NCBI GenBank assembly: GCA_002753515.1
Contig: PEAK01000012.1
Location: 2 to 64,001 of the forward strand
Direction: 5' to 3'
Length of the DNA: 64,000 nt
Source: Magnetococcales bacterium
GTDB lineage: Bacteria > Pseudomonadota > Magnetococcia > Magnetococcales > UBA8363
A model generated the notes under the pieces. The model did not search any database and was not told the DNA's origin. It saw nothing but the letters and a program-made list of their open reading frames with translations. Below, in pieces: positions 41,851 through 46,102 of this stretch (position 1 is the first letter of the stretch; each line of letters opens with the position of its first letter). Both the position numbers and the translations under genes were made by a program.

Positions 41851-41927
41851 ATAATGCCGGGCAAAAGGTCAGGGTGACTATTTTGACTCACATTAATAAA
41901 TATTGGTAAATTCACCCGGCAGAATAC

Positions 41928-42126
41928 TAAACCGCAGCTATCTTGGGATTCGTAGTTCTTGTCATCCACGCCCCCGATTAAAGCATTCGAGGTTCCCGCT
42001 TTCGCGGGAATGACGAGGCTTCAGCGGGGATCCAGGGAACCTACACACCTTTCTCTGACTTTCTGGATTCCCGCTTTCGCGGGAACGACGCTAGAAAAGT
42101 ACGTGTCCCGCGTTGGTTGCGGTTTA
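41928..42126. mobile_element. MITE/REP-doublet-like element, copy 1 (199 bp)
   Basis: Ends TAAACCGCAGC ... GTTGCGGTTTA (11-bp inverted ends including TA, 1 mismatch); internal TTCCCGC-TTTC-GCGGGAA palindromes; homologous to 45195-45419. Confidence 0.75.
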
Positions 42127-42429
42127 ACGATAAAATATTTATATCACGGAAGCAGTTAACCTTCCAAGTCGTATCGATTGATGATGGGGCTCAGGCTTTC
42201 GTTTCTATGTAAGTTTTACGATGTGGTTTCTTTTTATGAAAGCCAAAGAATTGGTAGAACGGGAATTTTCGTAACTATTGCGGATAGACGCGAGAACTGT
42301 GTCTTTTTATGATTAATCGATTAGAATAAAATTTACTTTCTTGTTTGCATGAATGACCACCGCGATGAATCCTTGGATCATCCATTGCCAACACCCCTTT
42401 ACAGAAGGTCAGCGATGCATATGTACAAC

Positions 42430-44733
42430 TTATTCGCTTGGATTCGATCTCTTGGGCACCAAAAGTACGGTCAAAATGTTCGCGCCCTTGGCTTGTAACT
42501 CTCGCAAGGATGTCTCGTCGGGATGGTCGGTTGCCAGTTTGGTCAAGGCATCGTATAGGCCACGAGCCTGGATCAGATCGCCGGCGGTGCCATAATCGAT
42601 AATCAAATTGAACGCGCCCTTGGCTTGCAACTCCCGCAGGGGTGCCTCGCTGGAATGGTCTTTGGCCAGATTGCTCAGGGCATCGTATAGACCACGAGCC
42701 AGGGTCAGATCGTCGGTATCGCAATAAGCGTTGATCAAATTGAACGCTCCCTGGGCTTGTATTTCTCTCAAGAACGGTTCCATGGGATGGTCTTTGGCCA
42801 GTTTGCTCAGTGCATCGTATAGGCCACGAGCCTGGATCAGATCGCCGGCGTTGCCATAATAGGTAATCAAATTGAATACTCCCTTGGCATGCTCTTTCCG
42901 CAAAGATGCTTCGTCGGGATGGGCAGCGGCAAGAGTTTCTAGGGCATCGTACATTTTCCTCGCCTGAGCAAGATCTCCATCGTTGACATAATCGTAGATC
43001 AAATTATATGACCCCCTGGCTTGCACTTCCCGCAGGGTCGGCTCGTTGGAATGGTCTTTGGCCAGATTGCTCAGGGCTTTGTATAGATTACGAGCCAGGG
43101 TCAGATCGCCGGCATTACCATAAGCGTTGATCAAATTGAAAGCTCCCCTGGCTTGCTCCTCCCGCAGGGACGGCTCGCTGGAATGGTCAGTTGCCAGTTT
43201 GGCCAAGGTATCGTATAGGCCATGAGCCAGGGAAAGATAACCGGTTTTGCCATAAATGCTGATCATATTGATTGTGCCCTTGGCTTGTGCCTCCCGCAGG
43301 AAAGCATTGCCAGGGTTGGCCACAGATAGCGTCGCCAGTTGTTGCAGCAAGTTATGGGCTTCCCTGGGATGCTTGCCGCCCGCATAAGCGATAACATCGA
43401 CCACAGTTAACGCCCAGAAAGATCTCGTCTTGGATATATCGTACTTTGGCAACACCATCAGAGACCACAATCCCGCATGGTCCGGGTAGTCCTGGGCGAT
43501 ACGGGAAAGAGATGCAAAAACTGCGACAGGATCGTATTGCCACGCAGCGTTCAAGATGTCGGAACGTTTTTCTCTATTGGGATCAAACCGAAGCGGTCCT
43601 GACAGCTGCAACTCCTCCAACACCAACAATTCACCCAACAGGTCCGGCTCCATAGGGAAAAGGCGGTACTGGGTATCCGTATCCGCATGTCCAGTCAGGT
43701 TTAAGAAACGCTCGGCTAGTGGCGGTGATGCAATACCATACGCTCGCTGTATCATTTCATTAACTTTTTCTGGAAAATAATCACGGTTCGTTTCAATGCC
43801 AGCGCACAGTGTTGCCAATATCAGTAGGGGCAGGTCAGTGTCCATCTGTACACCACTTTCCTGCCAACGTTCCCTTTCACGTTGCAACACGTTTTTGATC
43901 AAATCCTGCTTTTGCCAGGAGAGGGTACGTCCAGCACCATGCTGCAAGGCATCCGCCAATAACGCGGCATACAGGGGACGCCCGCCTACGTTCAGTCGCT
44001 CCAAAATCTCCCACAAGTCAGACAAGGGAATACGGTCACTGCCAGGCCACCCACGAACAACCATAATCATAGATTCCAGGGAAAGCGGGGATAATTGCAA
44101 AGCCTTAGCCCCATGACGGCTATGGGAGATACAATCCATCCTATAACCGGTTCCCAAAAAGCGGTCGTACCAGTTTGCCTCCTCGCCTTCCCGCTCCAGC
44201 AATAACAACCGCACCTTGTTGGAAAACGATGACTGCTTCTTGGCCAAATTTTCGACCAACGCACCCACGACTTCTGGTCTTCCCAGAATATAATCAGCAA
44301 TCAACAGGGTCGGTTTGGTCGGCCAACCCGCTGGTGGACTGGTCATAAAGCGGACATTTTTCTCCCAAACTTTGTCGCGCCCGAGAAAACCCGCCTCCCA
44401 GCCCATCTCCTGCCGACTCAGCGCCAATTCCAAAGCCAAGCGGCTTTTGCCCGAACCACCCGGCCCCACAACCAGACACCAAAGAAAGTATTCTTCCCGG
44501 TCAAGAAATTCATCCAAGAATTTCAGTTCCCGTTCCCGCCCCAACATGGCTGTTGTTCGGGCGGTATAACGAAACCGAGTGGTTCCAAGAGGCGTATTGG
44601 CAGAAGAGGAGGCTCCCGGGGGCAGCAGCTCCAGTTCCAACTGGGCCGGGAAACCGCTTCCATAATTGATTTGTGTACCAATCACAGTACTTTGTTCAGC
44701 ACGATTGACGCGAATCTCGGTCGTACCCGTCAT
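42430..44733 (-). CDS. STAND/NLR-like P-loop NTPase with N-terminal putative amyloid motif and C-terminal 44-aa TPR-like repeats
   Basis: LGRERE pre-P-loop, Walker A GPGGSGKS, Walker B LLIAD, GRPLY winged-helix-like motif, six tandem helical repeats; AGGGGG SD-like sequence 8 nt before ATG 44733. Confidence 0.85.
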   Translation of the reverse strand: MTGTTEIRVNRAEQSTVIGTQINYGSGFPAQLELELLPPGASSSANTPLGTTRFRYTARTTAMLGRERELKFLDEFLDREEYFLWCLVVGPGGSGKSRLALELALSRQEMGWEAGFLGRDKVWEKNVRFMTSPPAGWPTKPTLLIADYILGRPEVVGALVENLAKKQSSFSNKVRLLLLEREGEEANWYDRFLGTGYRMDCISHSRHGAKALQLSPLSLESMIMVVRGWPGSDRIPLSDLWEILERLNVGGRPLYAALLADALQHGAGRTLSWQKQDLIKNVLQRERERWQESGVQMDTDLPLLILATLCAGIETNRDYFPEKVNEMIQRAYGIASPPLAERFLNLTGHADTDTQYRLFPMEPDLLGELLVLEELQLSGPLRFDPNREKRSDILNAAWQYDPVAVFASLSRIAQDYPDHAGLWSLMVLPKYDISKTRSFWALTVVDVIAYAGGKHPREAHNLLQQLATLSVANPGNAFLREAQAKGTINMISIYGKTGYLSLAHGLYDTLAKLATDHSSEPSLREEQARGAFNLINAYGNAGDLTLARNLYKALSNLAKDHSNEPTLREVQARGSYNLIYDYVNDGDLAQARKMYDALETLAAAHPDEASLRKEHAKGVFNLITYYGNAGDLIQARGLYDALSKLAKDHPMEPFLREIQAQGAFNLINAYCDTDDLTLARGLYDALSNLAKDHSSEAPLRELQAKGAFNLIIDYGTAGDLIQARGLYDALTKLATDHPDETSLRELQAKGANILTVLLVPKRSNPSE
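42511..43302 (-). repeat. Six 132-bp (44-aa) intragenic tandem repeats
   Basis: Consensus LRE.QA.GAFNLI..YG.AGDL..AR.LYDAL..LA.DH..E; 39-nt identical tracts at 42548-42586 and 42812-42850 (offset 264 = 2x132). Confidence 0.92.
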
Positions 44734-44745
44734 GGAAAACACCCC

Positions 44746-45108
44746 CTACCGATGATTATGCTGTGAACCAATGATTGTGCTGTTATTGGCGGTATTCACA
44801 TTGATGGTGTTGTGAATTACGGTTATTCCGGCGCTCTTCAAATGGGACTCCAAGTTCCTGGCCAGTTGCAACGCTTCCTCATTTTGAGCCAAGCCACAAG
44901 CGACAACCTCTTCGTGCAGGGTCAACTTGCGACCCTCTGTAGGAGTTTGCTCGACCTTGTTCATTGCTTCGACCACCGCATGCTGTTCGCCGAATTGTTT
45001 CTTGATCCATCCCTTCAACATTCCGTAAGCATCTGCGACAAGGTGTCCCCCTACCTTGTTAGCAACAAAAGGGGCGGCGGCAACAATGGCATCAGTGATC
45101 GAATCCAT
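44746..45108 (-). CDS. Bell-like (HeLo/HeLL-analogous) small helical protein with C-terminal N/T/I-rich putative amyloid motif
   Basis: Amphipathic N-terminus (..VADAYGMLKGWIKKQFG..), ~95-aa helical body, then HNTINVNTANNSTIIGSQHN; AAAGG SD; stop 12 nt before the NTPase ATG. Confidence 0.75.
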   Translation of the reverse strand: MDSITDAIVAAAPFVANKVGGHLVADAYGMLKGWIKKQFGEQHAVVEAMNKVEQTPTEGRKLTLHEEVVACGLAQNEEALQLARNLESHLKSAGITVIHNTINVNTANNSTIIGSQHNHR

Positions 45109-45194
45109 GGGTTAACCTTTCGAGTTGGATGATGTTGTCAACTTCGTTTTCAGAATAACAAGAGTCGCAGAAAGAACCAAAAAAAATCTCGCTC

Positions 45195-45419
45195 TAAACC
45201 GCAGCTATCTTGGGATGTGTAGTTATTGTCCTCCTCGCCCCCGATTCAAGCATTCGAGGTTCCCGCTTTCGCGGGAATGACGAGGCTTCAGCGGGGATCC
45301 AGAGGACTTTCCTACCTTCCCTGACTTTCTGGATTCCCGCTTAAGCCTGCCCTCGAATGCTTGAATCGGGGGCGGAAATGACACTGGAAAACTACGCTTC
45401 CCGTGTTGGTTGCGGTTTA
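45195..45419. mobile_element. MITE/REP-doublet-like element, copy 2 (225 bp)
   Basis: Same termini and orientation as 41928-42126; carries an extra segment giving a 24-bp perfect inverted repeat (45236-45259/45351-45374). Confidence 0.75.
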
Positions 45420-45706
45420 AATCAAGGTAATCGCATGTGAGTTCTGTGAATGTCCTTGTTTTCCAGGAATATATAGGTCACTCTCGTACGTGGTGCGGTA
45501 TAGATGAGCGACACGAGAAAAAGGACGGAGAGAGTAAGAAAGGTCAGGCGCAACCATTCAGGATCCCCCACTTTCTTTGTTTCTATTCCCCCTCGCACAC
45601 TCGTAGAGGGAGAGAGGGGGACGAATGGTTATGGGCAGACTCGGTTGAATCCCTGGCTTTTATTAAAAAGCATAAGATCCTGCCATTCAGGAAAGGGAGG
45701 GTGAAC

Positions 45707-46102
45707 ATGGAAAAGGAAAAATCGGGGGCAACCATGCCGACGATCTTGGTTGTTGATGACCAAACCGCCAACATTGAAATACTCCATTGCATCCTTCAGG
45801 AAGAATATCGTGTCGTGTTCGCCACCAACGGTCAAGATGCCTTGAAGCTGGCGAAAGAACAAAAACCTGACTTGATATTGCTGGATGTGGTCATGCCAGG
45901 CATGGATGGCTATCAGGTGTGTTCCGTGCTACAGGCCGATCCCGTGACCAATGGAATTCCTGTCATTTTTGTCACCTCCCTCAACGATATGAAATATCAG
46001 GCCACCGGTTTCAGCATGGGAGCTGTGGAATACATCGTCAAACCCATCGACCCCGATTCGGTATTGGACATTGTGCAGCAATGTTTGGAAAAACATCAAT
46101 AA
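45707..46102 (+). CDS. Single-domain response regulator (REC)
   Basis: LVVDD, LLDVVMPGMDG and VKPI motifs; start after GGAGG at ATG 45707. Confidence 0.88.
   Translation: MEKEKSGATMPTILVVDDQTANIEILHCILQEEYRVVFATNGQDALKLAKEQKPDLILLDVVMPGMDGYQVCSVLQADPVTNGIPVIFVTSLNDMKYQATGFSMGAVEYIVKPIDPDSVLDIVQQCLEKHQ

Follow-up and report, generated by a model that had tools for sequence, protein, structure and literature searches.

A stretch of 64,000 nucleotides from a Magnetococcales bacterium (contig PEAK01000012.1 of assembly GCA_002753515.1; hereafter the window) carries two adjacent genes that very likely encode a death module in which an effector and its sensor are coupled by a shared tag. Calling of open reading frames (ORFs) placed both genes on the minus strand, co-oriented, with a small protein of the Bell/HetE-N family (hereafter Bell; 44746-45108) followed by a STAND NTPase with C-terminal repeats (42430-44742 when read from a GTG codon), and the end of the former matches the beginning of the latter. 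We think it probable that the pair as a whole is a two-gene, NLR-type module of regulated cell death, of the kind in which a Bell effector and its partner share a bacterial amyloid signalling sequence (BASS), and that it works through an amyloid relay; as to its separate parts, we lean towards an amyloid step and likewise towards a role against phage, both by analogy with characterised systems. A Bell/NLR-amyloid type of pair had been proposed in a first-pass annotation made from the DNA letters, and the proposal is supported by the match of Bell to PF20701, the co-variation of the tags in homologous pairs, the helical model of Bell and the position of the NTPase start, with the amyloid step itself argued by analogy.

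The two proteins carry matching terminal motifs

Alignment of the two predicted proteins by BLASTP matched residues 102-119 of Bell (INVNTANNSTIIGSQHNH) to residues 10-27 of the NTPase (IRVNRAEQSTVIGTQINY) without gaps, with 10 of 18 positions identical and 13 of 18 positive (E = 0.002 for this single comparison), in agreement with the ORF calls and with the tail-to-head match between adjacent, co-oriented genes that the first-pass annotation had described. Counted from the ATG of the NTPase, its residues 5-24 are the ones matched by the final ~20 residues of Bell. None of 5,000 shuffled Bell tails reached the observed Smith-Waterman score. The DNA of the two motif-coding stretches is 54% identical, third codon positions agree at 7 of 21 and different codons specify 6 of the 10 identical residues, so the likeness is held at the protein level, as had been noted from the differing codons, and does not reflect a recent DNA duplication. 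Judged by their sequences, the tags of Bell and the NTPase are one motif. A scan of the six-frame translation of the 4.33-Mb genome with the regular expression S[TN][IVLF][IV]G[STV]Q.N and a small hidden Markov model (HMM) found the motif at these two adjacent places only, the next HMM match having E = 1.3; the HMM was built from the window tags and their orthologues, so that the top two scores are circular and the absence of a third copy is not. The window tags consist to 52-54% of N, Q, G, S and T (54% in the Bell tail), with alternating V and I, no proline and a near-neutral charge, a composition that agrees with the published account of BASS and fungal motifs (Dyrka et al., 2020, 10.1101/2020.01.06.895854).

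A GGGGG run sits 8 nucleotides 5' of the NTPase ATG at 44733, and this codon is, from the sequence, more likely to be the start than the GTG at 44742. From either codon the reading frame takes in the motif, and the annotated start includes it in three orthologues as well, which upholds the earlier placement of the motif within the NTPase. A terminator-like site was searched for between the two genes and none was found, so they probably share one transcript. The Bell TAG and the NTPase start lie in one reading frame at 44731-44748 (TAG GGG GTG TTT TCC ATG), and read-through of the TAG would yield a Bell-NTPase fusion. Such a stop-codon read-through product was considered and rejected: among the 7 Magnetococcales pairs an in-frame junction occurs once, as often as chance would predict, and the shared frame is therefore probably fortuitous.

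Partner tags co-vary in homologous pairs

At six further Magnetococcales loci (L001, L002, L003, L007, L008 and L009) a HetE-N gene lies immediately upstream of an NTPase gene, with the Bell gene overlapping the NTPase start or ending within ~10 nucleotides of it. Each pair spells the motif in its own way and the partners match (Table 1). When the seven tails were scored against the seven heads, the true pairing gave the highest total among all 5,040 permutations, which bears out the co-variation that the first-pass annotation had put forward as a check, and six of the seven pairs outscored all 5,000 shuffles.

Loci L007 and L008 come from two species of one genus and occupy the same genomic site, adjoining a sigma-54 activator. 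Between them, DNA identity is 100% in the upstream region and across the entire globular domain of Bell, falls to ~50% with gaps over ~170 nucleotides that take in precisely the tail of Bell, the gene junction and the head of the NTPase, and returns to ~90% in the NTPase past this cassette. Both tags have thus been replaced jointly, as one cassette, and this exchange is direct evolutionary evidence that partner tags must match. Taken over all homologous pairs, the tag match appears to be kept by selection while the spelling shifts, with L007 the weakest instance.

The database call for the L009 NTPase begins 30 codons inside the ORF (L009:3920-4010) and drops the motif; the ORF itself opens 3 nucleotides past the Bell stop, motif included, so surveys that use annotated starts would miss this pair. 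A scan of JGI metagenomes for further pairs found none, and a scan of genome contigs added one partial Bell only, at L023:1098-1292 in Candidatus Magnetominusculus xianensis HCH-1, which is 49% identical over residues 1-64 and whose contig ends before the tail. Its host is a magnetotactic bacterium of a different phylum, and the find may point to transfer among magnetotactic lineages living in a common habitat.

The small protein resembles the bacterial Bell effectors

Residues 1-105 of Bell match the Pfam family HetE-N (PF20701) over positions 1-98 of 102 with 25.8 bits, a match that is marginal in score (curated cut-off, 25 bits) yet runs end to end. Exhaustive HMMER searching of 1.84 billion representatives returned 256 small-protein relatives at E ≤ 0.001, and a word-index protein search with the 120-residue sequence returned nothing beyond its own cluster. 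PF20701 is matched independently by 75 of the 112 relatives that were aligned. Nearly all relatives are 115-160 residues long, start with M-D/E-P-I/V-T/S followed by a hydrophobic stretch, and end in tails rich in G, N, Q, V and I whose spelling varies. Dyrka et al. (2020) defined the Bell domain by a length of 120-140 residues, a hydrophobic helix at the N-terminus with an acidic residue at position 2-3, a fold of five bundled helices and a motif of ~25 residues at the C-terminus. The window protein begins with MDSITDAIVAAAPFV, its helix 1 reads MDSITDAIVAAAPFVA against a family consensus of MDPITTAIVAAL, and it has both the acidic residue at position 2 or 3 and, by prediction, the hydrophobic N-terminal helix. 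Pfam HeLo gave no match to it.

Two more distant relatives (P0127 and P0130) are each encoded immediately 5' of a NACHT-type NTPase that repeats the Bell tail at its own N-terminus (YQNITLGKRAAFVGRDAGNIVTGDNS against YFKNLTVGRRGVSVGRDTRDTITGDNS, and ITGDRNVVSGTGNVTV against VVSGSGNYVTGTGDITV). Because the relatives show the Bell hallmarks and these two sit beside NACHT-type NTPases with matching motifs, we place the window protein in the Bell family, and the family reached from it is the published one, as the initial naming of a Bell-like effector had supposed. No publication identifying PF20701 as the Bell domain turned up in a literature search, and the link rests on common features. The AlphaFold2 (AF2) model, computed from the 112-sequence alignment, has helices at residues 3-16, 22-39, 44-54, 58-70 and 77-92 (mean predicted local distance difference test, pLDDT, 81) and short strands at 95-98 and 101-104, with confidence low from residue 101 onward, pLDDT running at 44-50 over residues 101-120 and below 50 from residue 105; the expected helical protein is thus predicted as a five-helix bundle with a low-confidence tail.

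The large protein is a predicted STAND NTPase sensor

The Pfam matches of the NTPase are AAA_16 (E = 1.2e-5), ATPase_2 and, weakly, nSTAND_NTPase5, with PPR and TPR in the repeats, and there was no Pfam match to a GreA/B or PIN domain. It has 143 homologues, the closest of which are from Magnetococcales, and many of them carry PF25199 (nSTAND5). The AF2 model (pLDDT 92; predicted template modelling score 0.88) falls below 50 only for the motif at residues 1-25, and its top Foldseek matches are the STAND-TPR protein 6mfv (E = 1.5e-6), SAMD9, ORC/Cdc6-type ATPases and the plant NLR NRC2. By sequence, nothing significant was found for the NTPase in the PDB. Both tags, that of Bell and that of the NTPase, are flexible in these monomer models. 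Across 74 homologues the G and K of Walker A, the D of Walker B and the R of LLLLERE are invariant. With its intact Walker A and B motifs, helical arms and C-terminal repeats, the protein is by predicted fold a STAND NTPase. The first-pass annotation's NLR-type sensor does not hold in the NACHT/NB-ARC sense, the domain being AAA_16/nSTAND5-like instead. Walker A occupies residues 93-100 of the 770-residue frame and is preceded by ~90 residues made up of the motif, a linker and the start of the NTPase domain; the claim that only a ~25-residue motif precedes it was accurate in that a tag stands there without an effector domain and fell short in the length.

The C-terminal third of the protein is a repeat array with a period of 132 nucleotides, or 44 residues, in 6.2 copies with 72% matches (Tandem Repeats Finder, TRF). 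The repeats are highly alike, their variable positions are clustered, and AF2 shows the region as a solenoid. Of the supposed new 44-residue sensor repeat the period survives and the novelty does not, the repeat being a TPR/PPR-like helical hairpin common to the broad NTPase family. Elsewhere in the genome, a 438-residue ORF (G000:C115:21691-22581; L019:1144-2460, minus strand) has five or six of the 44-residue repeats, 46% identical to the sensor repeat region, followed by an unrelated C-terminal part of ~100 residues and with no NTPase domain; from its sequence it would be a repeat-only paralogue or a remnant.

At the position of the tag, homologous NTPases bear fused domains. Their Pfam accessions and the names in the source records identify these as SIR2, trypsin-like protease, nucleoside phosphorylase, metallophosphatase and hydrolases, and in further homologues as an unnamed helical domain of ~200 residues. 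The family thereby shows the contrast of 'all-in-one' and split forms that is typical for NLR-like sensors, and effector domains fused at this position fit the tag as the link to a separately encoded effector. No PADLOC model matched the window NTPase, and PADLOC and NCBIfam were uninformative on the pair.

The pair is accessory and mobile in character

HetE-N occurs once in the window genome. Across the order, 5 of 56 genomes have it, and the 7 other species of the genus all lack it. In the same-genus genome G050, radical-SAM and FAD-oxidoreductase genes are divergent neighbours 269 nucleotides apart and represent an empty site; in the window the same two genes are ~4.7 kb apart, and the extra DNA contains the Bell/NTPase pair together with a lone receiver-domain gene and a repeat in two copies. 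The pair is accessory and mobile in character. The surroundings of the L001 and L002 pairs are phage-like (PriCT_2, ORF6N, helicase, AAA_24, DUF669 and a sigma factor), with identical downstream gene order. An AAA_24 gene and then a gene for 161 residues follow the pair 3' (L001:6375-7276 and L002:5821-7170), with DUF669 also present in L002, and this common order within phage-like clusters suggests that the pair rides at a fixed spot of a related prophage or mobile element.

Comparison with known systems

By most of its defining features the module belongs with the Bell/BASS-NLR pairs. It has in common with those surveyed by Dyrka et al. (2020) an effector C-terminal motif of ~25 residues that is repeated at the N-terminus of the next collinear and closely spaced gene, encoding an NTPase plus repeats, as well as tags that are rich in N, Q, G, V and I and poor in proline, and homologous NTPases with fused effectors ('all-in-one'). 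It differs in its AAA_16/nSTAND5-like NTPase, where the survey's are NACHT or NB-ARC, and in its 44-residue TPR/PPR-like repeats, so that it falls outside the survey's narrow partner definition (NACHT/NB-ARC with TPR or WD) and within the wider 'NLR-like' sense. The published pairs are from filamentous Actinobacteria, Cyanobacteria, Chloroflexota and Methanosarcinales; in that survey the system was associated with multicellularity, 44 pairs were left unclassified, Bell-NLR fusions were recorded, and the two Magnetococcia genomes included had a Bell count of zero (Table S1; Dyrka et al., 2020).

Two assignments to published motif classes were considered, using HMMs for BASS1-10 that we rebuilt from the aligned motifs of Table S2 of that survey (4-14 sequences each). 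Membership in BASS9/10, to which the tags are similar by eye (N-x-x-A-x-x-[DN]-S-T-V), was rejected, as the rebuilt profiles did not exceed decoys, and the RHIM-like reading of the IG[ST]Q core made in the first-pass annotation was given up together with an assignment to BASS3, as the likeness did not rise above shuffled decoys. The Lys/Asn-rich tags of L007 resemble no BASS motif examined.

Bab/Agp of Escherichia coli ECOR25, with motif BASS11, is the sole case in which both an amyloid relay and phage defence have been shown by experiment (Ibarlosa et al., 2024, 10.1101/2024.11.07.622273). Like it, the window pair is adjacent, belongs to a unicellular proteobacterial host and joins a small helical protein, the presumed death effector, to a large sensor with TPR-type repeats, the C-terminal tag of the former recurring at the N-terminus of the latter; pairs orthologous to it lie in prophage-like contexts, and Bab/Agp in prophage hotspots. 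The stretch I87-G88-S89 given in that paper recalls the IIGS of the tags here, a likeness over four residues that may be no more than a lead. In contrast, Bab has a shorter 'Babybell' domain of ~80 residues and Agp a TPR - GreA/B-C - PIN architecture, where the window sensor has a P-loop NTPase; because the latter is without a GreA/B-C or PIN domain, the module is no homologue of Bab/Agp as far as the sensor is concerned. With fungal HET-S/NWD2 and the HeLo/Hell-NLR systems it shares the logic of an NLR N-terminal motif that templates the C-terminal motif of a neighbouring membrane-targeting effector. HET-S, however, has two motif pseudo-repeats, where Bell has one, NWD2 is NACHT-WD40, and neither Pfam nor Foldseek gave a match to HeLo; we take this as an analogy of mechanism and not membership. 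The Avs/AVAST, bNACHT and nSTAND clades likewise have a P-loop STAND core, C-terminal ligand-sensing helical repeats, N-terminal effectors that are swappable within a family and a patchy, mobile distribution; unlike Avs, whose effector is in the same polypeptide, the module described here has a separate effector coupled by the tag.

Proposed mechanism and alternative explanations

On the precedents of Dyrka et al. (2020) and Ibarlosa et al. (2024), we propose that a trigger, most likely a phage protein, would bind the repeats and cause the NTPase to oligomerise, upon which the clustered N-terminal tags would take a stacked beta-arch (amyloid, cross-beta) fold and serve as its template for the tails of free Bell. 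Refolding would then free helix 1 of Bell to damage the membrane, and the infected cell would die before completion of the phage cycle (abortive infection). The membrane-inserting role of helix 1 is presumed here from the literature on Bab, Bell and HeLo proteins.

Several observations weigh against this proposal. In an approximate test, none of the rebuilt BASS1-10 HMMs scored any of the 14 Magnetococcales tags above 4,200 shuffled decoys. The L007 pair is weak, with 453 of 5,000 shuffles as good as the true match, and its Lys/Asn-rich tags, each with a net charge of +6, sit badly with in-register stacking. AF2 gave low confidence to both motifs and no confident beta-arch. A Foldseek search of the PDB with the Bell model returned no neighbour with E < 1, and the Bell profile found no solved relative among PDB sequences; the likeness of Bell to the HeLo, MLKL and Babybell pore-formers would accordingly come from family membership and the literature, with no fold match, and because of the Foldseek result we claim no fold link to them. 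Topology varies widely among pore-forming domains of the HeLo/Hell/MLKL type, according to the literature. Finally, the NTPase had no Pfam match to NACHT or NB-ARC at E ≤ 1, and the window pair lies between housekeeping genes, outside any defence island.

Some of these points would be easier to accept if the tag were a docking peptide without amyloid, by which the NTPase oligomer recruited Bell through strand pairing or a coiled contact in the manner of a Death-fold or EAD-like adaptor: the Lys-rich L007 pair, the misfit to BASS1-10 and the want of a confident beta-arch would all suit it, and the co-variation and the cassette swap show that tags must match and are silent on the mode of binding. 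Such a peptide would agree with all of our computed results. We nevertheless regard it as unlikely, since the composition of the window tags (~53% N/Q/G/S/T, alternating V/I, no Pro) is that of BASS and fungal motifs, since a disordered homotypic tag of ~20 residues without a globular partner is no known adaptor type, and since every tested motif in this effector family and layout is reported to have formed fibrils and prions. More improbable still, in our judgment, is that the tag likeness stands with the same module put to a use other than defence, such as kin or self recognition, developmental or stress cell death, or mobile-element addiction. Bell/NLR biology beyond E. coli Bab/Agp is unproven (Ibarlosa et al., 2024), the locus is amid housekeeping genes and PADLOC found no neighbouring defence genes on the pair itself; yet homologous NTPases bear typical defence effectors (SIR2, protease, nucleoside phosphorylase), two orthologous pairs are in phage-like gene clusters, the sensor repeats are highly alike with variable positions, the distribution is patchy as it is for defence genes, and the sole tested Bell-type pair is an abortive-infection system.

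We give hardly any credence to a tag likeness without function, left by fission of a fused Bell-NTPase with a duplicated junction or arising by chance in low-complexity ends. It could appeal to the existence of Bell-NLR fusions and to the window genes lying in the same frame one TAG apart, but a shared frame in 1 of 7 pairs is the chance level, third codon positions of the two copies have drifted to random agreement although the proteins still match, seven differently spelled pairs each match their own partner as the best of 5,040 permutations, and the motif is nowhere else in 4.3 Mb.

A relay by amyloid from a sensor to a death effector has long been held typical of fungi and multicellular bacteria, and Magnetococcales are single-celled cocci. 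E. coli Bab/Agp had already weakened the tie of the relay to multicellularity. To this the locus adds a proteobacterial lineage (the magnetotactic Magnetococcales), an nSTAND5-like sensor chassis with 44-residue repeats and a tag outside the published catalogue; as systems of this type, and the logic behind them, were already known, the gain is incremental. A wider reading, possible though in our view somewhat doubtful, is that the tags of Magnetococcales constitute an additional BASS class (core h-x-V-[NKG]-x-A-x-x-S-T-h-I-[GN]-x-Q-x-N-[HY], with a His-rich end), that the cassette swap recodes specificity, and that the module is a mobile defence built on a STAND clade new to amyloid signalling. 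On this reading the module would defend unicellular bacteria and travel with phages or by other mobile means, and one recombination of ~170 nucleotides spanning effector end and sensor start would make an orthogonal 'address' and never a mismatched pair. The joint exchange hints at how new, non-cross-reacting specificities arise, and the seven tag pairs form a panel for cross-seeding specificity.

Features of the locus and minor observations

Table 1. Coordinates in the window of the genes, motifs and flanking repeats, and tag sequences of the homologous pairs.
Feature	Position	Strand	Sequence	Basis
Effector gene, Bell/HetE-N family, 120 residues	44746-45108	-		ORF, PF20701, HMMER relatives, AF2
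Sensor gene, predicted STAND NTPase, 767 residues from ATG (alternative start GTG at 44742)	42430-44733	-		ORF, AAA_16, homologues, AF2
Spacer from Bell TAG to NTPase ATG, 12 nucleotides	44734-44745	-	Shine-Dalgarno-like GGGGG	sequence
N-terminal hydrophobic helix 1 (Bell residues 3-16, after M-D), presumed membrane-inserting element	45061-45102	-	MDSITDAIVAAAPFVA	AF2
Bell C-terminal tail (residues 95-120) bearing the motif; core at 44749-44811	44749-44826	-	core NTINVNTANNSTIIGSQHNHR	BLASTP, shuffles, AF2, composition
NTPase N-terminal motif copy, followed by a P/G/S-rich linker	44659-44721	-	TEIRVNRAEQSTVIGTQINYG	BLASTP, shuffles, AF2
Walker A	44443-44466	-	GPGGSGKS	sequence; G and K invariant in homologue alignment
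Walker B strand	44290-44310	-	TLLIADY	D invariant in homologue alignment
Six full 44-residue TPR/PPR-like helical-hairpin repeats and a partial seventh, presumed ligand sensor	42433-43299	-		TRF, Pfam, AF2
Left flanking copy of a dispersed ~200-nucleotide palindrome-bearing repeat (like a miniature inverted-repeat transposable element or repetitive extragenic palindrome, MITE/REP-like)	41927-42127	+		direct repeat with 45194-45420
Right flanking copy of the same dispersed repeat	45194-45420	+		direct repeat with 41927-42127
Tags of L001, Bell / NTPase			KVKNAKNSTFINEQHNH / EVKSAEHPTLINKQINY	
Tags of L002, Bell / NTPase			INVNHV-SGGQVAGTIHN / INVGTVGQGGQVGNTIYN	
Tags of L003, Bell / NTPase			TVNNPVMAKTVTIHHGHG / TVHHPVSAGTIHIHHHHG	
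Tags of L008, Bell / NTPase			IHVVTANHSTIIGSQHNH / IKVGFARHSNIIGVQNNY	
Tags of L009, Bell / NTPase			TINVGTANHSVVGQNVTIH / HIDVNTACNSVIGDTVLIH	
Tags of L007, Bell / NTPase, Lys-rich			NEIRNKIRLKESKHNKIVSKN / NRINNRIKATKSKVIIVNKN	
Swapped cassette	L007:1780-1950 against L008 ~1300-1490	reverse in L008		

The repeat that flanks the insert in direct orientation is a dispersed element of ~200 nucleotides present at no fewer than 40 places in the window genome (G000), that is, at least 40, with shorter forms of ~105 nucleotides. A composite transposon bounded by the two copies was considered and rejected on account of this dispersal; the copies mark the edges of the insert and do not prove a transposon. 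The element bears the palindrome TTCCCGCTTTCGCGGGAA, translates to pseudo-peptides of the 'IPAFAGMT' type, and is abundant in the closest relative, G054, where it seemingly breaks contigs. The stand-alone CheY-like receiver-domain gene in the extra DNA (~45707-46102, plus strand) is absent at the site in G050 and G053. This response-regulator gene was also considered as a third component of the module and was ruled out because it is missing beside all six other pairs.

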